Under the pieces are notes generated by a model. The model was given only the letters and a program-made list of their open reading frames with translations. It did no database searches and was not told the origin of the DNA. A program made the translations under genes and the position numbers. A stretch of 62,956 nucleotides of DNA, the filler included, from Stramenopiles sp. TOSAG23-2 (Eukaryota): NCBI GenBank assembly GCA_900128395.1. It is 27 parts of 27 records of this genome, joined end to end, with 100 filler letters (N's around TTAATTAATTAA, not from the genome) between each part and the next. Parts side by side here need not be neighbours in the genome. Positions count along the whole stretch, not along the records: positions 44,455 to 46,682 come from LT651915.1; 26 more parts are not named here. The stretch is one strand, 5' to 3'. This document shows positions 10,396 to 57,820 of the stretch, in pieces. Within the stretch, counting starts at the first letter, position 1, and each line of letters opens with the position of its first letter.

Positions 10396-10613
10396 AAAGA
10401 TAAATATATATACGTAAAAAATTAAAAAATTTTCGGATTGTAAAAAATATATGTTATTATGTGTGCGGTAAAATATCGATAATATGTTGTTTTACAAAAA
10501 TATACGAGCGTAAAATACTTCTTTTATCTTTTTCCATTTTTTTTAACAATTGTCGTCTGGCACCTCCTCTGCTCTCTCTGCTGGATGTGTGTGTGTGTTA
10601 ATATATATATATA

Positions 10614-11180
10614 TTAATATTCACCTTTATGAATCTCCACACCACCTTTAGCACGGGCAGCACTAACTTTCGCTTCCCATCCAGGTTGTGAACGTGCTTT
10701 TTTATCTTGTTTAAATTTTTGTAACAATTGTTTACGTTGTTGGTTCTCTAAACGGCGTTTCTCTTTAAGTTTTGCTTCTTCCCTATCACGTATTACAGCT
10801 TTAGAACTTCGTTTTGATAATAAAGTCACATCTACTTTTTTTGTTGTTGCTGGTCCAACGTTTTCTTGTGATGTTTTAAATTTATTACATATTGCTTCCA
10901 ACGTATTTGCTTCTTGTTGAATGAACTCCGTTGTCCCTTTAAAAACCAACAAATTGTCCCCATCTTCTCTCACAAATCCCACTTTGACTAAATAGTCAAC
11001 TGCAGCACCATTATTCACTTGAACAATACGTTCATTAATTTTTGGATTTGATAGTTTAATAGTTTTAAATTTGTCGTTATTTTTCAATAAATTTTTCACT
11101 AATTTGAAACATGTATTGTAACATATGTATTCTTTTTCATTGTTTACACGTACATACGATGCATGTGGTGTGTACGACAT
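10614..11180 (-). CDS. PUB-domain protein with C-terminal charged coiled coil
   Basis: KLVKNLLKNNDKFKTIKLSNPKINERIV...GAAVDYLVKVGF matches the PUB (p97-binding) pattern. Confidence 0.75.
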   Translation of the reverse strand: MSYTPHASYVRVNNEKEYICYNTCFKLVKNLLKNNDKFKTIKLSNPKINERIVQVNNGAAVDYLVKVGFVREDGDNLLVFKGTTEFIQQEANTLEAICNKFKTSQENVGPATTKKVDVTLLSKRSSKAVIRDREEAKLKEKRRLENQQRKQLLQKFKQDKKARSQPGWEAKVSAARAKGGVEIHKGEY

Positions 11181-11521
11181 TATTATTATGTGTTTGTTTT
11201 TGTTTGTTAAGTTTGTTTATATGATATGTAATTTTTTGTTTTCTGTTTTATTCTCTCTTTTTTTTTGTATCTTCATCTGCTCGTGTTGGAGGTCTTGTGC
11301 GTTTTTCGTATATATCCACTGGTAGAATTCTATGTTTGATTATTTTTACGACAAAACAACAACAAAAGTGCACAACGTTCACTGAAATAATAATAATCGC
11401 GTGTCTTCATCAAATATTATAATAGCATATGAATAGCACACCACCGTCTAATGGAGGAAGTTTAACCCTAAGAAAATTATCTATTCCTCTCTACTATTAA
11501 TAATAACTATAATACTACTAA

Positions 11522-11530
11522 TACCTGGTA
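11522..11530. promoter_or_regulatory. Candidate upstream motif TACCTGGTA (representative copy)
   Basis: Exact copies at 6736, 11522, 28164, 34877 and 48914, all non-coding and on the 5' side of the nearest ORF. Confidence 0.35.
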
Positions 11531-11745
11531 TACTGCTGGTGGCCAATATACTAGTATGTTGCATATGTGCATTTTTTCAAAAAAAAAAAATTATTATATA
11601 TTTTATTATCATTATTTATTATCTAATTATATAGTAATACAACACNNNNNNNNNNNNNNNNNNNNNNNNNNNNNNNNNNNNNNNNNNNNTTAATTAATTA
11701 ANNNNNNNNNNNNNNNNNNNNNNNNNNNNNNNNNNNNNNNNNNNN

Positions 11746-12095
11746 GACATATAGAAATAGTAAATAGATTATTAAAGCACGATTCAATTGATATTAATAA
11801 AGCTACAAGCGATAATAGTCAAACGCCACTTTATGTTGCATGCAAAAGAGGACATATAGAAATAGTAAATACATTATTAAAGCACGATTCAAACGATATT
11901 AATAAAGCTACAAGCGATACTGGAGAAACACCATTGCATGCCGCATGTTCAAGCAAAAGCTGGGAGACCCTTGATTTAGCAAAATTACTACTTGCATCTG
12001 GAGCTGATTGCAGTATCGAGAACAGCAATGGGAGTAAACCATATGGCTTTAACGAAGATGGTACATTAAATGAAGGCATGTTTGATGATTATTGA
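11746..12095 (+). CDS. Ankyrin-repeat protein, C-terminal fragment (absent from ORF track)
   Basis: Open frame from 11748: HIEIVNRLLKHDSIDINKATSDNSQTPLYVACKRGHIEIVNTLL...GETPLHAAC...LLLASGAD; stop TGA 12093-12095. Confidence 0.88.
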
Positions 12096-12191
12096 TTATA
12101 TGATGTTGATGACTATTGACGACCACAGGAAAGACACATACTGTAGACTGTAGACACACACACACACACCATGTTTTTTTAAAGTATGATA

Positions 12192-21157: not shown

Positions 21158-23287
21158 TACGACACTCGCTGTATTCTAACAAATATAATAAATAATAATT
21201 ACAATAGTATTAATAATCAAGGCAGGAAGAGCAATATTAAAAATTTCTACAAGATCAAAAATGATTCTAATTTCAACTGTACAAAAACTGGAAACAATTG
21301 TTTACATGAGGGAACTTGTGATCCTAAAACAGGCTTATGTACGTGTATGAAACCGTGGCAAGGCGATAATTGTCTTGAGTGTGGTTGTAAACACGGAGGT
21401 ACTTGTGAAGGAAAAAACTCTTGTACTTGCCCAGAATATTACGACCCAAAATCATGGTGCAGTTTGTGTATTGAAGGCCACGGGGGCCCAAAGTGCGAAA
21501 AGTGCGATTGTGGTGGAAATGGCTCTAACGCCCGTAGCGCCCATGGCGCCTGTAACCCTTCCCCGTCTTCCAAAGCTATGTGTCAATGCTATTTTCCATA
21601 TGTAGGTGATCACTGTGCGCAATGTGGCTGTTTCAATGGTGGAATTTGTACAAACTCTTCAGGAGGTTCATTATTTTATGGCTGCATTTGCCAAGGTAAT
21701 TTTGATGCTGAATCTAGTTGCCTTGATTGTGCTGATGGGTTTTATAAAGTGACCGGCACAAATCCTAGACATAATGACAAATGTTTGGAATGCCCTGGTG
21801 GAAAAGATAATCCATGCTCAAAGAATGGGATATGTACAGCAGATGGAACTTGTAGATGTTTAAATGGATGGGATGGGCCTTTCTGTAGTAGTCGAAAAAC
21901 GGAAGCATTTATTATTCCTGAAAACATCGTCATTTTTGTATCCATTGGTGTTGGCGCCCTTTTTGTTGGTTTAGTTGCAATGTCATTTCTAATACTATCT
22001 AAAAATATTGATTACACTGCGATAAATGGCAGCAATAGTGATCATCAGGATAGTACAAATACAACAAATTCTACTGGATATTCCTCCAATGATATCACAA
22101 TAAATAATATGGATGAAAATATCACACGTGCACTTTTAAGCAAATCAAATGAGAAACTTTCATCAAGCTTCAATTTAAAATATAATAATGATATGGTTGA
22201 TTATGGCAGTATCAACATCAATAACGATGATGGTAAAGAACAAGCATATAATAATGGTGGCTTAGATGAGGACAGAGGTAATTTAGAGCATAAATACAAC
22301 AACAACAATAATGATAATAAAAGTGACAATAAGTCAAATAATGTTGTATCTACCGTGCATGGTTGGGAAATTGGCTTAGAAACGCTGAAATTATCAACCC
22401 CAATAGCAGTTGGATCATCTAGCAACGTATATTTTGGCGATTATGCCGGTTTTCCAGTTGCAGTGAAAGTATTGCCATATAGAAAAGATAATAACAATAG
22501 TAACGACTCAAAAAATAAGAAAGCAAACAGCGTGAAAGATGATTATCGACGAGAGGCTAGTATATTAAGCCAATTGCATCATATAAATGTCGTTCGATTC
22601 TATGGAATTGCTTTCACACCAACTAGTGTACTTTTAGTACAAGAATTTTGTCCTCATACATTGCAGCAAGTCATATCCAATGGCAATGAGAGATTCGATA
22701 ACAGTTGGTGGTGGGAAACGTTGTTACGTATCTCAATAGAAGTTGCCAATGCAATGACGTTTTTACATGATAAAAATATTGTACATAGAGATTTAAAACC
22801 GGATAATATTTTATTGGATGAAAACGGTGTTGTAAAAATTTGTGATTTTGGCGTTGCTAGAATGGTTGGAACTAATGATTCTGCAAATATGACCGGACAA
22901 GTTGGAACGCCTGTTTATATGGCACCAGAGCTTTTGTTGCAAACGACTGCCCAGGAACATGCAAATCCACAGAAATTTGATGTTTACAGTTATGGTATTT
23001 TAATCTGGGCGTTATGGTCACGAAGAGTTCCATATCGTCAACACTTTATGGAAAATTCATTAAATACCTTTCAATTGGCACAAGAAATTGTAAATGGCCT
23101 TCGTCCGACTATAGATTCCAGTACTTTGCCAAAATTTGAAAGTAAAGCTAAGACATGCATGATTCCAGTATTGCCATATAGCTTGGAAAATTTAATGACT
23201 GCATGCTGGGCCCACGAACCAACGTTGAGACCGACAATGAATGAGATATCAAATATAATTTCATCTATCAAACAAGAGGAGATATGA
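21158..23287 (+). CDS. Receptor-like kinase: EGF/laminin-EGF ectodomain, TM helix, TKL kinase
   Basis: Frame open from 21158. Multiple EGF-like Cys repeats; TM IVIFVSIGVGALFVGLVAMSFLIL; VAVK, HRDLKPDN, DFG, GTPVYMAPE, CWAHEPTLRPT. Confidence 0.92.
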   Translation, partial: YDTRCILTNIINNNYNSINNQGRKSNIKNFYKIKNDSNFNCTKTGNNCLHEGTCDPKTGLCTCMKPWQGDNCLECGCKHGGTCEGKNSCTCPEYYDPKSWCSLCIEGHGGPKCEKCDCGGNGSNARSAHGACNPSPSSKAMCQCYFPYVGDHCAQCGCFNGGICTNSSGGSLFYGCICQGNFDAESSCLDCADGFYKVTGTNPRHNDKCLECPGGKDNPCSKNGICTADGTCRCLNGWDGPFCSSRKTEAFIIPENIVIFVSIGVGALFVGLVAMSFLILSKNIDYTAINGSNSDHQDSTNTTNSTGYSSNDITINNMDENITRALLSKSNEKLSSSFNLKYNNDMVDYGSININNDDGKEQAYNNGGLDEDRGNLEHKYNNNNNDNKSDNKSNNVVSTVHGWEIGLETLKLSTPIAVGSSSNVYFGDYAGFPVAVKVLPYRKDNNNSNDSKNKKANSVKDDYRREASILSQLHHINVVRFYGIAFTPTSVLLVQEFCPHTLQQVISNGNERFDNSWWWETLLRISIEVANAMTFLHDKNIVHRDLKPDNILLDENGVVKICDFGVARMVGTNDSANMTGQVGTPVYMAPELLLQTTAQEHANPQKFDVYSYGILIWALWSRRVPYRQHFMENSLNTFQLAQEIVNGLRPTIDSSTLPKFESKAKTCMIPVLPYSLENLMTACWAHEPTLRPTMNEISNIISSIKQEEI

Positions 23288-23458: not shown

Positions 23459-25394
23459 AGAAGCGAAAGTTGAACGCATGTCAAAGATAAAAGGTTTAAA
23501 AGGTGATCAAGGTATACCTGGTCCAAAAGGTGATCAAGGTATGCCTGGTCCAAAAGGTGATCAAGGTGCTACTGGTACAAAAGGTGATAAAGGTGATCAA
23601 GGTTCAAAAGGTAACAAAGGTATAAATGGTCAAAAAGGTGATCAAGGTGTGAAAGGTTTAAAAGGCGATAAAGGTGCACAAGGTTTGAAAGGTGAGCAAG
23701 GTACACCAGGCCTTGGCTTGAAATATGTAACTTTCGCATTGGATAAAAATTTTGTGAAAGGCGATTATGTTTTTTCAAGGTCTGCGAAAGATGCTAAACA
23801 TGATTCTATGTTTATTGCTGAAAAATCATTTAATTCAAAAAATAAAAAACCATATCAAGATATAGGAAATTGGATTGAGTTTAGTGCACCACGTGGTAGA
23901 GATGGTGAAAAAGGTGATAAGGGTATACAAGGCGAGCAAGGTAATATTGGACCTATTGGACATACAGGCCCAAAAGGCGATCAAGGTTTAAAAGGTGATC
24001 AAGGTTTAAAAGGTGCTCAAGGTGTACAAGGTCCAAAAGGTGAGCGTGGCCATACCGGTGTCCAAGGTGTTGCTGGTAAGGAAGGCATGCAAGGTCCAAC
24101 AGGTGCTACTGGTAAGGAAGGCATGCAAGGTCCAACTGGTGCTACTGGTGCTACTAGTGCTACTGTTACTGGTACGGATTGCCAAGACACACCGGAGTGG
24201 ATAGATAAATTCAGCAAGGGAGAAAACGTTACCACCTGCAGTCATTATGAAGTATATGAGTGGTGCATTGGTGGTGGTATTAACCCGGAATACCCTGCTT
24301 ATGCCGGGTGGGGGGCAGAAGAAAATTGTTGTGTCTGTGGTAAAGGTACAACAAAGCCAGCAAATTCAAACAAAAAATTTGCTTTTAATGGAAAAATTTC
24401 CGCTAATCCACGGAATAAGATTGGTCCATCAAGCCATCCAACACATCTTCGTCGTAGGCGGCTTCTACAAAGTCCCCATACAGGTTCGGTTTCAGGTTCG
24501 GGTTCAGGTTCGGGTTCTGGTTCAGGTCCACGTTGTCATGACACAGCCGACTGGACTGATGATTTTAATATAACTTGTAAGAAATACCGTCGTTTTGGAT
24601 TGTGTGAAGGTGACATGCTCAAACCCAAATATAAAGAGAAATTCGGAGATGACGCAGAGAAAAATTGCTGTGGGTGTGGAAAGTCAGGTATAGCACCGCA
24701 ATTGTACTACCCACCACCACCACCGGAAAATACTGAAGCTTGTCCAAATTACAAGGATCCAGGACATATAGATCTAAGTAACAAGAATGAAATTGAACTT
24801 ACTGAAATCGAAACAGATGCTACAGATTTACGTTTCGAAATTGTAAGAGACAATATCAAAAATCATATGATGGAGTGGCACCCTTATATGTATAAATTAT
24901 TTTTAAATAATACGAACATTAGGTTCGACACACATACGAGTACTAAAATGCTTTATTACGACTTTGATTGTACACAAGAACCCCATAAATGGCGATGTGA
25001 GTTTACAAAAGATTATAAGAAACATAAATTTAAGTTCCAGCCCGATGGATATAAAACACAAAGTTCCCAATGTTTCAAGCATGATGAATTTGGTGAACTT
25101 CTGGTTGATAAGGCGGATCCAGCCTCCGATGAAACCACAGGATATGTGCCACTTCAGGATTGCGAAAAGGATTGCATATCACCTACTACGTATAATTGGG
25201 TGTATGTTTATGATAACGAAAAGCCGGGTTCGAAACCAATTGAAAAGTGTTTAGCATGGACAGGTGCGGAAAACGGGATTGCAAAATATGGTTGTTGTTG
25301 TGGTGAGGAGGCCACATTGACTAATTGTGGGAGAAGCGATTCGAATGGGAGAAGGAGGAGGCGTTTGTTGAGAAGTAGTAATGAAATGTGTTAA
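23459..25394 (+). CDS. Collagen-like (Gly-X-Y) protein with Cys-rich C-terminal modules, 5' partial
   Basis: Two G-X-Y blocks separated by a ~60-aa globular insert; two CxDxxxWxD...C..Y...C...AExNCCxCG modules; GS linker; RRRRLL motifs. Confidence 0.88.
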
Positions 25395-26703: not shown

Positions 26704-26828
26704 NNNNNNNNNNNNNNNNNNNNNNNNNNNNNNNNNNNNNNNNNNNNNNNNNNNNNNNNNTCTGGCATCTAAATAGATTAAATTAGTAAATTCATTTAAA
26801 TAATCGGGCAATTCAGTACAGAATTAAA
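26636..26828. other. Internal scaffold gap with duplicated 68-bp flanks and chimeric junction
   Basis: 26636-26703 = 26761-26828 on either side of N 26704-26760; the sequence then switches to an opposite-strand ORF. Confidence 0.8.
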
Positions 26829-32798: not shown

Positions 32799-33771
32799 TA
32801 TTGTTTGTTTTTAACAATTCACCAATACTTTGTACATCAGTAATATTATTATTATTTAGGTACAATGTCGTTAATGTATTGTTTGTTTTTAACAATTCAC
32901 CAATACTTTGTACATCAGTAATATTATTATTATTTAGGTACAATGTCGTTAATGTATTGTTTGTTTTTAACAATTCACCAATACTTTGTACATCAGTAAT
33001 ATTATTACGTTGTAGGTACAATTCTGTTAATGTATTGTTTGCTTTCAATGCTTCAACTATATTTTGTAAATCCTCATCATGGATGTTCTATTTCAATTCT
33101 TTAAAAATTTTCAATATGTTTTTCTGTTGTCCATTATGATCTTTGAAATTTGCATTTTGTAAGAATCGAGATGGTATTGCGAAACGCAATATTTGGTGAA
33201 CGATTACCATCGTTGTTCTCAATAATGATGGTACGATTGTGATAGAATCACCTGTTTTATCGAAATAGAAGTCAGGTATTCCATAGTCAATCAATTCAGT
33301 GTATGAAATTTCATTGCGTAAATAACGATCAATACGTTCACTGGCAGATTCACCATCTGGTGTTGTAGATAACAATGGCGGATGTACCATGTATCGGTTC
33401 TCTCCTAAGAATGAAAATAACGGATTCTGCATGGTTGAAATGTTAATCACAAACGAAATAATGCATACACATAAGCGTGATATTTGTAATGATTTTTCGA
33501 TAACAGAGCGCTTCATATCTTCATAATTCCCCGCATTTTTAAACACGACAATGCCAGTTGATTTGATTGATGAACTAAGTTTACGCAGTAAGGATTGTTC
33601 TGCACGTATTTTAGAATCAAAGTCAACTAATGGTGTTGGTGTTGTTGTAGTATCGTCGTTGAATGTCTCATTTAATTGTTGAACTACATTGTCGACAGCA
33701 GTGTCGAAGGCACTATTTCTTGGGGTGTTGGCTTCACCACTTGTACTATCATTGGAAGTAATATTCGACAT
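32799..33771 (-). pseudogene. LRR protein (26-aa near-identical repeats) interrupted by an in-frame TAG; 3' truncated
   Basis: ORF 33088-33771 and the LRR ORF share one frame: KELK*NIHDEDLQNIVEALKANNTLTELYL...; 78-bp repeats NNTLTTLYLNNNNITDVQSIGELLKT. Confidence 0.6.
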
Positions 33772-37463: not shown

Positions 37464-39694
37464 TAGTATGTGCATGTGAAAAAGGACGTTTTGAGGATGT
37501 GAAAGTATTGATTACAGGGCATAATGATGTGAATGGTAGTAATGGTAATAGCAAAAGAAGGTGCAATAATAATAATATGACATTGAAAGAATACGTGAAT
37601 CAAGAAGGTAAACGTAGTAATGGTCGTGAATGTACACCTTTAATGGCAGCTGCACACTACGAACATTTCCAAATAGTTAAATATTTGATTGAACAAGGTG
37701 AAGCTGATCCTAATATTGGTAATGGAGAGAATGCATTACATTTAGCAGCAAACCAGGCCATTATTGATTATTTATTCTCCATTTTGCTAGATGGAATAAC
37801 ACTTAATACATTCAATGCGAGAGATGAGTATAAGAAGTTATTTCCAGACGGTACGCCATTAGTATGTGCATGTGAAAAAGGACGTTTTGAGGATGTGAAA
37901 GTATTGATTACAGGGCATAATGATGTGAATGGTAGTAATGATAATAATAATAATATGACATTGAAAGAATACGTGAGTCAAGTCGGTACAGATAGTAGTG
38001 GTTTTGATTATACACCTTTAATGATAGCTGCAATGAAAGAACATTTCCACGTAGTTCAATATTTAATTGAACAAGGTGAAGCTGATCCTAATATTGCAAA
38101 TAGTATTGGATTGAATGCATTACATTTTGCAGCAATGTGGAACGGAACGGATACTAATTTGATTCAATTTTTATTAACTCATATGTCTCTTGGTAGTATT
38201 AATAAGAAGACCGGGGGAGGCACTCCCCTGGACTGTGCATATCGTGAAGACTATCCAAATATTAAACTCATTGCACTTTTACGTTCAAAAGGTGGAAAAG
38301 CAACTAGACATGATGAAAATGGTAGAAATGTAGGAGTAGGGAATGGTGATTTACACGATTTACACAATGCTATCAAATCTGAAAATATGGAATTATTTCG
38401 GAAAGTAATGAATGAAGATGATATTAGTATCAAAGTATACATGTCCAATAATCCGGAAAAGCCTTTATTACGATACGCAATCGATGTGTTAAATATAAAC
38501 ATATATAAAATATTAGTAAAGGATAAACGTATCAATCTAAATGAGGAAGATTTAGAAATAAAGGGTAAAACTAATTTACATTACATATGTGAAATTAAAT
38601 TTGACAAATCAAACGAAGAGAAACATCTGGAACTAACGAAACACATTTATCACAAAATTAAACCAACATACCGTGATGCCACTGATCGAGATCGAGATGC
38701 CATAATACGTTATTGCAATTGGCCATTAGTTATGAAATGGGCCAAATCACTTGGTACAAAATTTCAACGTTATAAAATTACCAACGAAGAAAAACCTATA
38801 CATCAATCCTCAACTTCGATTGTATTTTTTGCTACTGATATTGAAGATAATAATAATCAAGTAGCATTAAAATTGATGAAAAATTATAATGAATTTAAAC
38901 GTGAAATTACTGCACGATTTACTAGTAATAATCTTGATAGTACAATTGATAAATATGTAGTCAAAGTACTTGGATGGCATTTACCGAACGTTGGTACAAT
39001 ACTTCCATTAGAAAATCATAAAGGAAAACAACGAAATTGTGTTACAGAACCAACCTTTCATCCTGAATACCAATATGTACTAGTCATGGAACGTGGCATT
39101 GTATCATTGTTTCACGAGCTTTCTACACAACGTATTGCCGGGTATAACCCAAACAAAATTGCCAATATATTTCATCAAGCTGCGACAAAAGTGAAAGAAT
39201 TGCATCATGATTTAAAATATATACATTGTGATTTAAAACCACGGAATTTTTTATATGTCAAACGTGATGACGAAGAAGAACAATTATTATTATGTGATAT
39301 GGATGCAGCATGTAAACAAGATAGCCAACGAGATGAAACATTGAAATATAGTACAGGTTACTGTCCACCTGAGCTCGCACAATATTTATTTAATAATAAT
39401 AATAATAATAGTGCCAGACACATTGAGAAAATAAAAAGTTCATTTGATATTTGGTCATTAGGTGTATTATTATTTGAACTATGTACTGGGCAGCAATTAT
39501 TTCATCAAGATATAAGTAATGATAATTTAGTAAACGAAACAGATAAAAGTATTTTATGTGCATGGCATACGATATCAGATAAATACTTGAATTTGATTAC
39601 TTTTCCAAATAACCGTCAATTTACAGATGCTGCTCGAGATTTAATTCGTTGGTGTTTGAAAGGTAAACCTGATGAAAGGCCGAAAAATATTGCA
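37464..39694 (+). CDS. Ankyrin-repeat plus atypical protein kinase, both ends truncated
   Basis: TPLMAAA, GENALHLAA, GTPLVCAC, TPLDCA ankyrins; kinase VALK, HCDLKPRN, LCDMD, STGYCPPE, DIWSLG, ERP. Confidence 0.88.
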
Positions 39695-42294: not shown

Positions 42295-44094
42295 ATGCCG
42301 CAAGATGGACAAGGAAGATGGCTTGTGCAAACTGATCGTTCAGAACTATGGATGTATACATTATCAGAAAGTTATGAACCTGGTGAAATAATTCATATAC
42401 ATGCTTCAAGTACTATTTGTAGATCTTTCCAGGTAGATATTGTACGTGATGGTAAAATTGTACATACTACGGAGACTATTTCAGTCAATTTTCATAAAGC
42501 ACCAACCCGTGCATTTGAAACTGGTTGTGGCTGGCCCGAAGTATATCAATTTAAAATTCCGAATGATTGGCCATCTGGTTTTTATATTATGAACGGACGT
42601 TGTGTTGGTCCAAATAATGACGCGGGACTGAATGGACCAGCATTAGCTGAACATTTTTTCGTACTTCGACCGTCGTTAAGTGACGATAGAAATTTGGTAA
42701 CAAAACATATCAATGAAAAACGTATATTATTAATTTGCAGCACAAATACATGGACGTCATACAATAATTGGGGAGGTGCAAATCATTATGCCTCCTTTGA
42801 GAAAACTGGTAACCCACGTTTACATTATTCCGATGAAGGGTTTCAAGTTCCTATGGAAGAAATCATGGCAGGGAATACCATTTTAAGTAATTGTAGACCA
42901 TATTCACCGGGAATGGTCACATTGCCAGACGGTTATCCGCGCCTTCCCTATAGTGCATTAAACGCTCCGAGTGAAATAAATAATGCTAGTGTCATACGCA
43001 ATATGATAAGTTTAGAAGGCGTTGATCGTGGTGTACTTGGTGGTCAGCAAAAAGCAAGTTCATGGTGCCAATCTACAGGATGGGCGAGTTATGAAAGATT
43101 TTTCTATGAATGGGCTGTGAAAGATGGTTATAAAGTGGATATGATTTCGAATAGAGACTTACATCGATATGGACGTAAGATTTTAGATCATTATAAAGTT
43201 TGTGTTTGTATTGGACATGATGAATATTGGTCTAGTGGTATGCGAGATGAAATTGATGGTTACCTTGATGATGGTGGTAGAGTTGCACGATTTGCAGGTA
43301 ATTTTTATTGGCAAATACGATATGAAGCAGATCCAAATGCACCAAAAGATGGAGCACCGAGGCAAATTTGTCATAAATATGGAGCCGCAAAAACCGATCC
43401 AGTTATGGGTACGAAAGATCAACATTTATTAACATATGAATGGGAATCTCCGCTGATTGGTAGACCAGGATGTGAAACATTTGGTTTAAATGGAGCAATG
43501 GGTCTTTATGCAAGATGGTTGCGGTCGAACCCGGCCAACCCCGGTGGATTTACCATATACAGGCCACAACATTGGGCTTTAAAAAATTCAGGATTATGTT
43601 ATGGCGACATGTTAGGTGGAGCGGCACAAGATGCTGTCATATTTGGATTTGAATGCGATGGACTTGATTATAGGATAGATGATGGAGTTCCTTTTCCTAC
43701 TGGTAATGATGGAGCTAACGTCGAAGCGACAAGAATTATAGGCATTGGTTTATGTGATAATTCAGGGTTACCAGGTGATCAAAGGTTAAATGCAGCTGTT
43801 AGGTATGGGAAAACACCGGATGAATTAGCAGGTGAGAATCTAAGTAAGGAAATGTTGAAAAGAGCTGAACGTGGTAATGGTATGATTGTCGAATTTTACA
43901 GAGGCAAAGGACGTGTCTTTCATGTAGGATCGACGGAATGGATCGTAGGACTTCAACAGCATCGTTCAGATCCAACACAATGTAAATCAAAAATGGTTGA
44001 GGTTATTACACAAAATGTATTGAATCGATTTTTAGATATCAAGCCGTTCGGTACAACATGGGATGATTTTGGTGAGACAGTTGCAAGACTTTAA
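42295..44094 (+). CDS. N,N-dimethylformamidase large (beta) subunit-family protein with PTS1 (-ARL)
   Basis: GCGWP...IPNDWPSGFY, STNTWTSYNNWGGANHY, GWASYERFFYEWA...GY, IGHDEYWS, ARFAGNFYWQIR, GGFTIYRPQHWAL...LCYGD, GFECDG, GRVFHVGSTEW, ITQNVL. Confidence 0.85.
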   Translation: MPQDGQGRWLVQTDRSELWMYTLSESYEPGEIIHIHASSTICRSFQVDIVRDGKIVHTTETISVNFHKAPTRAFETGCGWPEVYQFKIPNDWPSGFYIMNGRCVGPNNDAGLNGPALAEHFFVLRPSLSDDRNLVTKHINEKRILLICSTNTWTSYNNWGGANHYASFEKTGNPRLHYSDEGFQVPMEEIMAGNTILSNCRPYSPGMVTLPDGYPRLPYSALNAPSEINNASVIRNMISLEGVDRGVLGGQQKASSWCQSTGWASYERFFYEWAVKDGYKVDMISNRDLHRYGRKILDHYKVCVCIGHDEYWSSGMRDEIDGYLDDGGRVARFAGNFYWQIRYEADPNAPKDGAPRQICHKYGAAKTDPVMGTKDQHLLTYEWESPLIGRPGCETFGLNGAMGLYARWLRSNPANPGGFTIYRPQHWALKNSGLCYGDMLGGAAQDAVIFGFECDGLDYRIDDGVPFPTGNDGANVEATRIIGIGLCDNSGLPGDQRLNAAVRYGKTPDELAGENLSKEMLKRAERGNGMIVEFYRGKGRVFHVGSTEWIVGLQQHRSDPTQCKSKMVEVITQNVLNRFLDIKPFGTTWDDFGETVARL

Positions 44095-44454
44095 CACTGT
44101 AATAAACAATATAGGATCATATTGCGCATATTTTTCATTAAATTTTACTAAAAATAGTATTTTCTACCTAAATTTTTGATTTACATGTACCATCTCATGG
44201 ATTTTTCAATTCATTACATGAAAACAAAGGAAAAACATTGAAAATACCTTTTTAAACTTAGGCTCCACTAGTATACTATTTTTCCTATCAATTGGCAAAA
44301 TAATTTTGACATTTCACGTTTTCAGAAATTAGGGATAGCAGAATTTTAAGCATTNNNNNNNNNNNNNNNNNNNNNNNNNNNNNNNNNNNNNNNNNNNNTT
44401 AATTAATTAANNNNNNNNNNNNNNNNNNNNNNNNNNNNNNNNNNNNNNNNNNNN

Positions 44455-46682
44455 TTTAACTTATGCGATGTACTTGTTGCGCTACTATCAAAGCTGTTAT
44501 TGTTAATAGCGCTACGACTTGGTGATCCATCCTTTTGTTGACCTGTTTGTACAAACAGATCTTTACGTATTTCTTCTGATGTTGGGCGATTCGCTACATT
44601 ACGTTGAAAACATTTTAACAAAAATGATCGCAAAACGTTTGTGATTTCATTTTCAGCTGGTAATACTGGCATCGTGCCTGGATTTTTTAAGATATGAGTG
44701 CAAAGAGCTAACGGGTTATCAAATTGAACCCATGGCGCTTCACCAGTAATCAACTCCAATATTGTAGCACCTAAACTCCAAATATCTACTTTGCGACCGT
44801 ATGATTCTTGCCCCAACATTACTTCAGGTGCCATGTAACAAAATGAACCTACCGTTTCTACATTTTCATTTAACATAGTATGACTACCAGACATTTGTTT
44901 TGAGATTCCAAAATCAGCTACTTTGATTACATCATTATCATCAACCAAAATATTAGCTGGTTTAAGATCGCGATGTATTATACTTTCCCCATGAAAATAA
45001 ATTAACGCATCAATAATTTGTATGGTGTACTTCCGCATTATCGTTTCATCAAAAGGCCCATGTTTTTGTAATTTGTCTTTTAATGAACCACCAGAAACAT
45101 ATTCCATGATGATGTAAATACCAGAGTCATGTTTAATGGCTCCATAATATTTAACTATGTTTCGATGCTCTAATTTACTTAAAAGCAAAATTTCATTCTT
45201 CCAGCAATCGTCATTTTCTGGGATAAGTTTTACGGCTCTTGTTTCATTTTTAATCTCATTCACAGCACGGTATACAACACCAAATGTACCAGCATTTATT
45301 ACTTCAAATGTGTGCCATTCATAATCACCTATTTTACGCTTTATTTTTGGTTCATTTTCCAGTGCAACATGTTGTGGGTTGTTTTTTGGGACTAAAAGTT
45401 GTTTAAGTAGTTGTTTTCCAGGCTCTGATGATGCAGGAAATCTGTATTCACGTTCTTTGATGGTTATGTACGTTTCTTGCCCTTGCTTTAGTATATTTTC
45501 TAATTGTGCGTGTTTATCTTCTAATAGTCGTTGATTTCGATTGATATCATTTAAGTCGTCCGCAACTTCATTTTGAAATTGATCAACTTCTTCTACTAAA
45601 ACATCATGCTTTATTTCCAAATTATCTTGCTTCTTCTTTACATATGTAATTTCCAAATTATCTTGCTTCTTCTTTACATCTGTAATATCCATTTGAAGTT
45701 TGCTAAATAACAATTTATTATGTTTATCCATCTGCTGTACCTTTTTTGCAACGGCAGATATATATCTTTTTTGTTTTTTTCCCAGTATAGTTTGCCAGGT
45801 TTGATTTTTTTGCAATTCTTTTATACATAATAAATTTAATGAATTCAATGCATTTGTATTAATAACTAGACGTTTCCCAGGTTTGAATTTACCATTTTTA
45901 TCGACACGTTGATCAATATTATCTTTCGTAACTTCTGTTCCATCCTCAAATCGTACTAATGGCATGCCTGTTGCAACACCAACTCTCCATAAATCTTCTG
46001 CAATAAATCCTGCATCTAAATCATTTGATTTGTTCCATTTATATATATGCAGTGGTAGATCAACAATTTTATTTAAAATCTTGCTTGGACATTTTTTAAT
46101 AATAGTTTTTAATTTTGAGTCTGATAAAACTATTAATTGATCAGTAACAAGTTGGTTGAATGTCGCTTTATTTGCAATTACATTATTTGCCGAGACTCTG
46201 TCATGAATATAATCGATATCTATCAGTATATGCGGTGTATTGCTTGGGCCATTTTCGAACCCAACACGCGCTGTTGACATATCTTGGATGTTGGTATTAC
46301 CGAAACCCCAATTCTTTGCACTTCCGATAACAATTATTTCATCAAATAGTAGATCACTTGAAATTTTAATTTTCGCTTGCATATCATCAACATTTTCATC
46401 TCCATCATCTGTATAAAAAATTCTCCAATAATTCAGACGAGAGTGATTACGCTTGGTATTTGTACCAGGAATGTTTGTACCAAATGGTAATTGAGTATTA
46501 TTAAAATCAATTGGTTGATGATTTTTTGGTTGTTGAGCTAGTATTTGACCTTTTTTATTTACCGTTCGCCAATAAAACTGTCTATTGTCATTCTGGTTAT
46601 TTACGACGTTTAATCTTCCTTGTAAAGCTCCATTACATAGAATATAAAAACATCGCCATTTGGGAACTCCTCGATTCATAAT
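44455..46682 (-). CDS. Fusion of unknown N-domain, peptidase S74/intramolecular chaperone domain, coiled coil and STE/MAP3K-like kinase; both ends possibly truncated
   Basis: LSDSKLK...LNKIVDLPLHIYKW...AGFIAEDL...INTNAL...CIKELQK; kinase AGTFGVVY, AVK, EHRNIVKYYG, MEYVSGGSL, HRDLKPAN, DFG, GSFCYMAPE, DIWSLG, EAPW. Confidence 0.82.
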
Positions 46683-46782
46683 NNNNNNNNNNNNNNNNNN
46701 NNNNNNNNNNNNNNNNNNNNNNNNNNTTAATTAATTAANNNNNNNNNNNNNNNNNNNNNNNNNNNNNNNNNNNNNNNNNNNN

Positions 46783-47343
46783 TCGCACGTACCATTTCAT
46801 GGCTACTGTATGACTTTTTGTCTGAATTTCGTGTGTATTGACAGGATTAGCAACAGACAATTTAAAATATATAATATTCCTAATTATATTATTATAATAT
46901 GTTTTGTTGAGCCGAACATTATGGAAAGGTTTTACCTCTATGATAATATTGACAGTTGGTGAAACGGCTGAATCAGGAGAGATTTTCCATCTCCTCCACC
47001 AAGTGAGAATCTTTGCAGCCGGGATGAACCGCCTGTCAAGATATCTTGTTATTCTTTTCCAACGCTTGTGTTCCTGAACGCGGTCAGCTAACACATCAAT
47101 CATAGTATTTCCAATATCTGTTTCACTATGAGTTGAGTGACCGTTGGAAAGAGGACCTGATAGAAGCTTTTGTCTCCATCGCCTCCACCATGTTAGGATC
47201 CTTGCAGCTGAAATAAATCTAGCATCACTGAATCTAGCCCAACGGAAACGATCCCTATTGGTTATCCGTGGAAGTTTTGGGCGTTCAAACCTGTTCAACT
47301 TGTTTGTTGTTGTTGTTAATGTACCCGAGCGTAGACGGGCCAT
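46783..47343 (-). CDS. Hypothetical protein N-terminus with duplicated IQ-like motif, 3' truncated
   Basis: RFISAARILTWWRRW and RFIPAAKILTWWRRW. Confidence 0.5.
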
Positions 47344-57258: not shown

Positions 57259-57322
57259 TATCGAGAGATCTATTTATTATGATACGAACTTCGTATCATA
57301 CCAATTCATTAATGATGATACA

Positions 57323-57531
57323 GTACAAAGTATTATTGATGTATTAAAAACAAACAATACATTAATATTATTGCACCTGCGTAATAATCAACTTAGTGCT
57401 AATATGTACTCACAATTAAAAGCTATACAACAATATAAAAGAGATGGATGTATTTAACCAATATAAAAGAGATGGATCAAACGGGTATCAACGTATCAAC
57501 AAGTAAAAGGGGGATGGAGATATCCGCATAA
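57323..57531 (+). pseudogene. Decayed C-terminal fragment of the 26-aa LRR family
   Basis: VQSIIDVLKTNNTLILLHLRNNQLSANMYSQLKAIQQYKRDG, similar to the repeats at 32799-33048; no start; internal duplication and frameshifts. Confidence 0.65.
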
Positions 57532-57820
57532 ATAATTAATAATTAATAATATATATATAGGTGTGATGTTTGTACTTGTGAGCGTGTAAGAATACTAAAA
57601 TGACCTCCCAAATTAACATATATATAAATGAATCGTAAATAAAATCTATCTCCACCATATATTGTTCTTCTATTATCTATATTAATACATATATCCGGCA
57701 ATATGTATTAATACCTTTTGTTGTAAAATTCAATTTACTATTTTTATATCTATTAATTTAACTATATACCTACGTAACAAATCAAATATTTAGTAAAAAT
57801 ATATTTTATATAAAATACAT

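Follow-up and report, generated by a model that had tools for sequence, protein, structure and literature searches.

Intramolecular chaperone (ICA) domains are known from two settings: viral fibres, which use them as a throw-away folding aid, and MYRF transcription factors, in which they act as a release switch. In the DNA described here, an ICA domain lies inside soluble protist signalling proteins; one of these has it ahead of a MAP3K-like kinase, and its relatives have it ahead of a TIR-NTPase-LRR output. The locus raises the question of whether the kinase fusion is genuine, and of what a probably self-cutting trimerization module might do at the head of a signalling enzyme.

An open frame filling a whole contig

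The window (the whole stretch of DNA analysed, 62,956 nt) consists of 27 short contigs separated by artificial N/TTAATTAATTAA spacers, and the assembly is highly fragmented, with contigs of ~2.2 kb. Mapping of the N runs and linkers on the sequence delimits the locus as one whole assembly contig of 2228 bp (44455..46682, no strand assigned), flanked by artificial N44-TTAATTAATTAA-N44 spacers at 44355-44454 and 46683-46782. A single minus-strand frame, uninterrupted as the preliminary description had said, takes up this contig, with 742 codons and 0 stops; the remaining five frames carry 30-87 stops each and stay open for at most 75 codons. Base composition puts the probability of 742 open codons at ~1e-28, and the most that 1000 shuffles produced was an open run of 133 codons. 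Translation also placed every motif listed in that description at the position given there.

Counted from the ATG at 46679, the ORF comprises 741 codons (44457..46679, minus strand) and is open at both contig ends, making it a gene fragment. The ATG is preceded in frame by ATT, and no stop occurs before base 44455; the start at Met 46679 is thus provisional, and the C-terminus is cut off by the contig end. Because the locus is an entire contig between spacers, the ORF runs off both ends, its first Met is provisional and its neighbours in the window are unrelated contigs. With both gene ends missing, further domains may exist, including a membrane anchor or sensor. The preliminary description had mentioned neither the fragment status on a 2.2-kb contig nor the artificial flanks, nor the occurrence of the ICA cassette in TIR-NTPase-LRR proteins described below.

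The contig is 30% GC, and third-position GC (GC3) is uniform across four segments of the ORF (0.17-0.24). It matches the nuclear contigs in composition. CPSF_A, Galactosyl_T and FMO are encoded elsewhere in the assembly, and a further contig carries a collagen-repeat ORF. No Rfam families or tRNAs were found within the window.

An internal ICA domain and its predicted trimer

The ICA/Peptidase_S74 domain occupies residues 186-294 (45798..46124, minus strand), as delimited by Pfam, a 3gud profile, identity to a relative (L002) and a trimer model. The Pfam Peptidase_S74 match covers residues 186-233 and profile positions 1-52 of 58 (E 6.3e-7; 30.0 bits, above the curated cutoff of 22), and a match to PHROG tail-fibre family 1980 spans residues 119-291 (E 1.2e-5). 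A family profile places Ser186 on residue 1 of 3gud (E 0.02), the released chaperone domain of the phage GA-1 neck appendage protein, and aligns SDSxLK to its SDERHK. These matches uphold the S74/ICA identity first proposed from motifs, which we locate as SDSKLK (186-191), HIYKW (211-215), GFIAEDL (224-230), INTNAL (273-278) and CIKELQK (285-291). The best three Atlas clusters were all S74, at a score of 0.76 that serves only as a lead.

Both residues of the expected dyad are intact, in agreement with the preliminary description: Ser186, the predicted nucleophile (codon 46122..46124, minus strand), and Lys191, the predicted general base at Ser+5 (codon 46107..46109, minus strand). The pair is kept in 10/10 family sequences that span the cleavage site and are otherwise 25-44% identical. 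Its spacing equals that of the MYRF dyad, S587/K592 (PMC6972908). By analogy with phage and MYRF domains, the ICA domain here probably cleaves itself at Leu185|Ser186. Ser/Lys pairs can also persist for structural reasons.

Upstream of the ICA lies a short segment, residues 159-185 (46125..46205, minus strand), defined by the interface in the trimer model and by the PHROG alignment, which begins at residue 119. It occupies the place of the triple beta-helix in fibres and MYRF. Ahead of it, residues 1-158 form a beta-rich N-domain (46206..46679, minus strand) that matched no Pfam family at E<=1 and whose best Atlas score, 0.77, came without a family. Compared alone with the N-domains of the L001, L002 and P0007/P0129 relatives described below, it scored E 0.25, which is not significant. 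AF2 monomer models were poor (mean pLDDT 50.3 and 44.2), and a Foldseek search of the first of these (pLDDT 50.3) against the PDB returned 0 matches at E<=1e-3; the VIA rows of the structure comparison reflected mostly the N-domain, not the ICA. Kyte-Doolittle analysis in 19-residue windows revealed no TM-like segment in the 741 residues present, the top mean (1.02) falling inside the kinase.

Downstream, residues 295-410 (45450..45797, minus strand) form a helical, coiled-coil region, assigned from trimer contacts, an AF2 helix and a crude heptad scan. The coiled coil of ~110 residues proposed earlier draws on no more than heptad-spaced contacts at residues 296-342 of the trimer model, a helix at residues 275-329 of the poor AF2 monomer model (mean pLDDT 50.3) and the crude heptad scan; its segment 343-410 is presumed. 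TRF detected a 36-nt tandem duplication of 2.2 copies within this region (45613..45691, minus strand), encoding DVKKKQDNLEIT / YVKKKQDNLEIK. The repeat is polymorphic in the sea, one marine contig (from run X3, below) skipping 36 nt (45612->45649).

Modelled in three copies without a family alignment, residues 150-420 gave a median ipSAE of 0.87 against 0.00 for the best control, three copies lying outside the calibrated case, in which the mark was reached by 21/30 proteins solved as same-chain pairs and by 0/23 single chains (17/29 and 0/30, respectively, on eukaryotes). The pLDDT was at least 74, and contacts agreed between runs in at least 78%. At the interface of residues 159-197 the inter-chain error was <1 A, and the chains are intertwined in the model. 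Solved ICA trimers memorized by the predictor may account for this score, which is therefore a sign of likeness and not of binding. The model predicts a homotrimer with an intertwined N-terminal segment and C-terminal helices, and it is from this three-copy prediction that the trimerization put forward in the preliminary description draws its support.

The kinase and its connection to the chaperone

A Pro/Lys-rich linker, residues 411-455 (45315..45449, minus strand), leads into a protein kinase domain of the STE/MAP3K-like type at residues 456-708 (44556..45314, minus strand), defined by Pfam and by motifs. All catalytic motifs are present: GTFGVVY (464), AVK (482-484), HRDLKPAN (569-576), DFG (589-591) and APE (617-619). 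Pfam Pkinase matches residues 456-708 over profile positions 2-261 of 263 (E 1.3e-62). The best solved relatives are MAP3K5/ASK1 (E 2.1e-44, 155 bits) and MAP3K2 (E 9.5e-44, 153 bits), in line with the earlier MAP3K-like assignment; STE20-type MST3/STK24 follows closely at 148 bits, the MAP3K placement being by match scores. Among the matches listed, the best named homologues are plant YODA/MAPKKK3 (~39% identity). ASK1 is an oligomerizing MAP3K in which activation loops are autophosphorylated in trans. The present kinase resembles MAP3K5/ASK1 and MAP3K2/MEKK2, the nearest among solved structures, also in being paired with an oligomerizing coiled coil. PADLOC matches to the kinase (mad6, 268 bits; PD-T4-6) were set aside as a defence signal because any Hanks-type kinase would score. 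Beyond the kinase, a Ser/Asn-rich tail (residues 709-741; 44457..44555, minus strand) is truncated by the contig end.

Because short contigs from independent marine metagenome runs (X2, X3, X4 and X6) tile the gene, a chimera is unlikely. The passage from ICA to coil is bridged by X4 record 21 (0 mismatches/176) and by X3 record 10. The linker between coil and kinase is bridged by X3 record 9 (2 mismatches/207) and X6 RNA-library record 29 (3/251), so that this junction occurs in two other studies. The chimera check across 45300-46200 proposed in the preliminary description is thereby largely answered: independent contigs bridge both junctions, but the whole distance from ICA to kinase is spanned by no single independent record. 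The stretch at 45502-45542, inside the coil, is covered by just one X2 piece, 96% identical, which shares the coil at 45404-45559, diverges below 45404 and differs toward the kinase. RNA-library contigs match the kinase half and cover 44468-45503 and 45580-45654 only; run X6 left the ICA half uncovered, a gap that carries no weight as evidence. Among 40 listed variants, 26 are nonsynonymous and 14 synonymous, in pieces that mix alleles and paralogues, so purifying selection leaves no clear sign.

Several searches looked for the same architecture elsewhere. A word-index search with residues 1-440 gave 0 matches among 5898 candidates; the best 120 of 2460 full-length matches contained no PF13884; phmmer with residues 1-440 against 1.84 billion representatives gave 8 matches, with a kinase in 0/8; and a profile search among longer proteins found P0007 only, all of these searches being blind to ICA-kinase proteins whose ICA is too distant from the present one. 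Likewise, no ICA-kinase or ICA-TIR protein appears in the papers listed by the literature searches. One passage of a preprint on amoebozoan integrin-alpha-like proteins includes 'protein kinase' and 'intramolecular chaperone' among the extra domains listed, leaving fusion unstated (10.1101/2020.04.29.069435). The preliminary description had known of no described ICA-kinase architecture, and none surfaced in these searches. The domain architecture is new, and it is real, assembled from known parts.

Relatives, competing readings and possible function

The same cassette heads other proteins. L001 and L002 encode uncharacterised proteins of 1460 and 1511 aa with S74, TIR, ResIII/AAA NTPase and LRR domains, and P0007/P0129 combine S74 with an NTPase; the Pfam S74 threshold is also passed by P0001, P0002, P0003, P0007, L001 and L002. 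The ICA is 42% identical to that of L002 over residues 167-298 (E 2e-24). L001, L002 and P0007/P0129 share with the present protein the ICA subfamily, a coiled coil directly after it, a beta-rich N-domain before it and the absence of a TM segment, whereas the C-terminal output of L001 and L002 combines TIR, a ResIII/AAA-type NTPase and LRRs in place of a kinase. L001 adjoins an ALG6/8 gene split by an intron-sized gap, and neither a capsid nor any further viral hallmark is present on L001 or L002. The same assembly has a paralogue on a different contig (56491..57258, plus strand), which retains the N-domain and the first half of the ICA (SDSELK...LHIYEW) before reaching a stop; in nucleotides it is 86% identical to L002, and at 57308-57652 it switches to the 3' end of that gene. 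That TIR-NTPase-LRR proteins of this lineage also use the ICA cassette alters the likely biology.

Among known systems, MYRF/MrfA offers a cellular parallel: in this eukaryotic family too the S74/ICA domain is internal, with the corresponding dyad (S587/K592 against S186/K191) and a beta-rich N-terminal cargo before the cleavage site that would leave as a trimer (PMC6972908). The present protein differs in that Pfam detects neither an NDT80/PhoG DNA-binding domain nor the MYRF C-terminal domains, that the available 741 residues hold no TM segment, and that the ICA is followed by a coiled coil and a kinase. Membership in the MYRF family was rejected, the MYRF C-terminal domains and TM being absent from the 741 residues and the Pfam content being kinase families plus S74. 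With the ICA of phage endosialidases, tail spikes and the neck appendage (3gud), the present domain shares the Pfam family, the PHROG 1980 match and the predicted homotrimer; unlike it, the phage ICA forms the extreme C-terminus and is discarded once the fibre has folded (PMC12220804), whereas here the ICA is internal and carries a signalling enzyme. The same source reports that polinton-like viruses integrated in the genomes of protists have fibre proteins in which a C-terminal S74 is ubiquitous (PMC12220804). A common domain and the same kind of host genome make polinton-like viruses a plausible donor of the module, although their fibres, as presented there, are long and of extracellular type, with laminin G, collagen and phage tail repeats and a C-terminal S74; no such domains occur here.

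The reading that we favour, and consider probable if only narrowly so, is that the locus is a nuclear gene fragment of an AT-rich marine microbial eukaryote, encoding a soluble, trimeric, self-cutting signalling protein. Its order would be a beta-sandwich-like N-domain, a short intertwining segment, the ICA, a trimeric coiled coil, a linker and an active STE/MAP3K-like kinase. As modelled, the ICA would assemble three chains into an obligate homotrimer, with the coiled coil continuing from the last ICA helix. If phage fibres and MYRF are a guide, the ICA trimer would then cut each chain at Leu185|Ser186 through Ser186 and Lys191, separating an N-domain trimer from an ICA-coil-kinase trimer. 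The coiled coil could keep the three kinases together and favour trans-autophosphorylation of their activation loops, as in ASK1. Because relatives carry the ICA-coil cassette before TIR, P-loop NTPase and LRR domains, it may serve a cytosolic stress or defence signalling family as a reusable 'trimerise and release' head, the kinase form being one member of that family; the defence part of this reading takes its basis from the domain content of the relatives only. Should the module behave here as in its other settings, these proteins would be obligate self-cutting trimers, a new way to build or mature kinase and TIR complexes and a second independent eukaryotic re-use of a virus-fibre part. 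They may also offer an entry to the cell-autonomous immunity of uncultured marine protists, of which little is known.

A rather less likely arrangement, though one to be taken seriously, is that the ICA is a scaffold that makes no cut, leaving an intact N-domain-ICA-coil-kinase trimer in which the N-domain, as a head that binds a ligand or partner, regulates the kinase. In favour of this, the trimer model is strong and cleavage is predicted only, the ICA is internal with >450 residues after it, unlike the phage case, and a constitutive cut would uncouple the sole candidate sensor domain from the kinase. Against a mute scaffold stands the retention of Ser and Lys at canonical spacing in 10/10 members of so divergent a family, and the internal ICA of MYRF does cleave (PMC6972908). 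An improbable alternative places the sequence in a virus, as an endogenous polinton-like virus, virophage or giant-virus element or a contaminant, with the ICA releasing a kinase from a fibre-like virion protein. The prevalence of S74 in polinton-like virus fibres (PMC12220804), the collagen-repeat ORF on another contig, the origin of relative P0002 from a marine 0.22-1.6 um size fraction and the dearth of context on a 2.2-kb contig would suit such an origin. It is opposed by IMG/VR scans for relatives, which gave 0/48 and 0/124 candidate stretches, by tblastn against 50,697 phage records, which gave no match, by the eukaryotic housekeeping ALG6/8 gene with its intron-like gap beside L001, by the lack of viral hallmarks on L001 and L002, and by a composition equal to that of nuclear contigs.

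Still harder to credit is an assembly or amplification chimera joining an ICA-coil gene in frame to an unrelated kinase gene: the assembly is fragmented, no single independent record spans the junction in full and the X2 piece differs toward the kinase, but 742 codons stay in frame with uniform GC3, and X3, X4 and X6 records bridge both junctions, leaving an unbridged stretch only inside the coil. We give equally little weight to the idea that this copy, from a fast-evolving family, is decaying or without function, for instance a pseudogene fragment. That idea draws on the same-assembly member, with its internal deletion and a stop within the ICA, and on the 26/40 nonsynonymous variants; it conflicts with 2.2 kb of 30% GC DNA free of stops and frameshifts, with the intact catalytic motifs of both domains and with the RNA-library contigs that match the kinase half.

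A more speculative extension, which we regard as a long shot, treats the beta-sandwich-ICA-coil cassette as a domesticated virus-fibre tip, the head of cytosolic antiviral receptors with kinase or TIR-NTPase-LRR output that would co-assemble with, or be trimerised by, the ICA fibres of an infecting virus. Because an ICA must trimerise to fold and cut, co-assembly with the ICA fibres of an infecting polinton-like or giant virus is conceivable; viral fibre synthesis would then set off kinase or TIR signalling together with release of the N-domain trimer. The immune-type relatives, the diverging paralogues, the deleted copy and the polymorphic repeat fit such an integrated decoy weakly, as do the frequent S74 domains of protist-virus fibres (PMC12220804) and, in bacteria, tail-fibre alleles that determine activation of a TIR-based system (10.64898/2026.06.04.730250). 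If true, an 'integrated decoy' with a built-in proteolytic read-out would be a receptor logic undescribed in eukaryotic immunity.

DNA resembling the output end of the TIR-NTPase-LRR relatives also occurs in the window: LRR-repeat DNA at 32799..33078 (no strand assigned) shares 76-93% identity with the part of the L001 and L002 genes that encodes their LRRs.

An ICA domain and a MAP3K-like kinase in one frame

Twenty-six copies of the spacer N44-TTAATTAATTAA-N44 split the 62,956-base window into 27 pieces of ~2.2-2.3 kb in descending length; the window is therefore a concatenation of small contigs from a fragmented draft assembly, not a chromosome stretch. The preliminary description had placed its S74-kinase fusion correctly at 44455-46682, but the spacer map revealed this interval to be exactly one contig with artificial flanks. 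Gene neighbours in the window are thus uninformative on the ICA-kinase gene, and neighbourhood arguments across spacers are void. The uninterrupted ORF was borne out: a minus-strand frame spanning the whole contig has no stop in 742 codons (probability ~1e-28 from base composition), with 30-87 stops in each of the other five frames and a longest open run of at most 133 codons in 1000 shuffles. Both frame ends are open, with an in-frame ATT preceding the ATG at 46679 and no stop before the spacer at 44454. The Met at 46679, from which we number residues, is therefore a provisional start, the C-terminus is missing, and the gene is a fragment.

Every motif listed previously (SDSKLK, HIYKW, GFIAEDL, INTNAL, CIKELQK and those of the kinase) was located as described. 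Pfam places Peptidase_S74, the intramolecular chaperone (ICA) domain, at residues 186-233 (30 bits, curated cutoff 22; E 6.3e-7). PHROG tail-fibre family 1980 matches residues 119-291 (E 1.2e-5), and for residues 1-320 the best three Atlas clusters all belong to S74 (score 0.76, read as a lead only). The family profile also matches 3gud (E 0.02), a solved structure of the chaperone domain from the neck appendage protein of phage GA-1, with Ser186 aligned to residue 1 of the released domain, in agreement with the S74/ICA identity first proposed. SDSKLK occupies residues 186-191 (Ser codon 46124-46122), and the Ser-Lys dyad is intact as S186/K191, both residues being kept in all ten family sequences that cover the site.

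A three-copy model of residues 150-420 reached a median ipSAE of 0.87, whereas the best control, of three, stayed at 0.00; pLDDT was at least 74, and at least 78% of contacts agreed between runs. In calibration, 21 of 30 proteins solved as same-chain pairs attained the ipSAE mark, against none of 23 known as single chains (17/29 and 0/30, respectively, among eukaryotes). The interface comprises an intertwined segment around the predicted cleavage site (159-197), the ICA core, and heptad-spaced contacts at 296-342, which in the model are a three-stranded coil running on from the last ICA helix. The suggested trimer is thus supported as a model; because ICA trimers have already been solved, the predictor may be reproducing those structures, and the result indicates likeness to them, not binding. 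Its profile match, its dyad and its predicted trimer together place the protein in the S74/ICA domain family, with cleavage predicted.

The kinase assignment also held. Pkinase covers residues 456-708 (Pfam, E 1.3e-62), with AVK at 482, HRDLKPAN at 569, DFG at 589 and APE at 617. The closest solved kinases are MAP3K5/ASK1 (E 2.1e-44) and MAP3K2 (9.5e-44), with STE20-type STK24 close behind, and the best named homologues among the matches listed are plant YODA/MAPKKK3 (~39% identity). By these matches the protein is a eukaryotic protein kinase, probably of STE/MAP3K type, for which 'STE-group, MAP3K-like' is a fair label.

Contiguity of the ICA, coil and kinase segments

Could the contig be a chimera of an ICA-coil gene and a kinase gene? 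All or parts of 44455-46682 occur in 20 of the 24 public runs listed, from 14 studies and including six RNA libraries. The best-matching run may be the source sample and was left out of the independent evidence. Logan contigs of four other runs (X2, X3, X4 and the RNA library X6), each 60-570 nt, together tile the stretch, although no single one covers it end to end. Two pieces bridge the join between the last ICA helix and the coil: X4 record 21 (45685-45860), which matches without a mismatch, and X3 record 10 (45543-45816), which is short of one 36-nt repeat unit. X3 record 9 (45295-45501, 2 mismatches) runs from the coil end through the linker to the first kinase residues, and X6 record 29 (45123-45373, 3 mismatches) from the linker into the kinase N-lobe. 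The RNA-library contigs compared leave the ICA half uncovered. The earlier concern over chimerism is thus largely answered at both joins by independent short contigs, but not by one piece spanning the stretch.

Only 45502-45542, inside the coil, has no near-identical independent piece; it is covered at 96% identity by a 571-nt X2 contig that matches the coil (45404-45559) and then diverges for 415 nt toward the kinase. Hints in this piece suggest that it probably comes from a paralogue with the same coil and a different 3'/C-terminal module. A chimera would require an in-frame join inside the coiled coil, and GC3 is even across all four segments of the frame; we regard it as very improbable. 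The helical region also contains a tandem duplication of 36 nt (12 residues) at 45613-45691, which is polymorphic, being present as a single unit in one X3 seawater-metagenome contig.

Paralogues, proposed mechanism and possible origin

Searching 1.84 billion representative proteins with residues 1-440 (phmmer) returned eight relatives at E<=1e-3; four pass Pfam S74 and none of the eight carries a kinase. Relatives P0007 and P0129 (886 and 897 aa) combine an N-domain, S74, a coiled coil and a ResIII/AAA-type NTPase. A metagenome scan yielded two loci, L001 and L002, whose intron-less ORFs (1460 and 1511 aa) encode N-domain, S74, coiled coil, TIR, ResIII/AAA NTPase and LRR. Over residues 167-298, our ICA region shares 42% identity with that of L002 (E 2e-24); the N-domains alone show no significant similarity (E 0.25). 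Downstream of the ICA gene in L001 (GC ~30%) lies an ALG6/ALG8 glycosyltransferase gene (10609-12122, plus strand) in two ORFs with a ~210-nt gap, most simply an intron. Because this adjoining gene is split by an intron-sized gap, L001 is, on sequence grounds, a eukaryotic chromosomal (nuclear) locus. In both loci the ICA gene is preceded divergently by a minus-strand ORF of >1100 aa with ubiquitin repeats (three in L001, 3-3572; one in L002, 126-3500), a conserved pairing.

Within the window, contig 56086-58310 matches L002 4995-6155 (upstream region, N-domain and first half of ICA) at 86% nt identity; past that point it skips to the 3' end of that gene (L002 9739-10055), its ORF stopping after LHIYEW. 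It represents either an ICA-TIR-NTPase-LRR copy with an internal deletion of ~3.6 kb or an assembly collapse. Tandem LRR-repeat DNA at 32799-33078, 76-93% identical to the L001/L002 LRR region in a ~78-nt register, probably belongs to the 3' portion of a further family member. Given an L002-type copy in the same assembly, the ICA-kinase and ICA-TIR-NTPase-LRR proteins are, as far as these matches indicate, paralogous products of one lineage. The overall preliminary interpretation is computationally supported but needs amending on three points: only a fragment of the gene is present, its flanks are artificial, and it has TIR-NTPase-LRR paralogues.

None of the 120 kinase matches listed (of 2460) from the full-length search carried PF13884, and no relatives emerged from two scans of IMG/VR or from a tblastn against phages. 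Neither an ICA-kinase nor an ICA-TIR architecture was found described in the literature searched, and protein searches, blind to ICA-kinase proteins with a distant ICA domain, yielded no second example, consistent with the original impression of novelty. The 75-aa metagenome protein P0004 joins a bacterial DAC (DisA-type) C-terminal end to 50 residues 64% identical to the last ICA helix; it is most likely a chimeric short contig.

According to PMC6972908, the ICA domains of MYRF assemble as a homotrimer, act as chaperone for the triple beta-helix upstream of them and then cut before Ser (P586-S587) with K592 as catalytic lysine, which releases an N-terminal trimer; the S587/K592 spacing equals that of S186/K191. 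Membership of the MYRF family itself was rejected: the available protein has no transmembrane-like segment and no MYRF C-domains, and no NDT80 domain was detected. Because of the dyad spacing, its family-wide conservation and the trimer model, the protein would most likely undergo a MYRF-like cut, with Leu185|Ser186 as the predicted site. The ICA trimer would cut each chain there, yielding an N-domain trimer and an ICA-coil-kinase trimer that would keep three MAP3K-like domains together. Holding domains together favours trans-autophosphorylation in ASK1-type kinases. Because paralogues carry TIR-NTPase-LRR behind the same cassette, we read it, from domain content, as a putative 'trimerise and release' head common to a family of cytosolic stress/defence signalling proteins. 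According to PMC12220804, fibre proteins from polinton-like viruses that have integrated into protist genomes commonly have S74 at the C-terminus, which makes such fibres a plausible source of the ICA module and also supports our boldest suggestion, that the cassette may be a fibre mimic sensing these viruses.

Other contigs in the window

Window GC is ~30% overall, and a separate 57-N gap lies within one piece (26704-26760). Long frames on other contigs are typical eukaryotic nuclear proteins, including a CPSF_A region, a galactosyltransferase, an FMO, an ion channel, a GH15 with a trefoil domain, and ankyrin-kinase and EGF-kinase fusions. Together, plus-strand ORFs for collagen triple-helix repeats (638 aa, 23478-25394), an EGF(teneurin-like)-kinase (21347-23287) and an ankyrin-kinase (37499-39694) hint at a genome with many shuffled kinase architectures. 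A complete 599-aa ORF at 42295-44094 (plus strand), whose C-terminal domain resembles that of an N,N-dimethylformamidase beta subunit (E 1.9e-55), is a bacterial-type enzyme alone on its small contig. The minus-strand ORF at 46783-47343, which had no Pfam match, carries the basic Trp-rich motif RFI-AA-ILTWWRRW twice and terminates at a GTAAA-type sequence, a possible intron donor.
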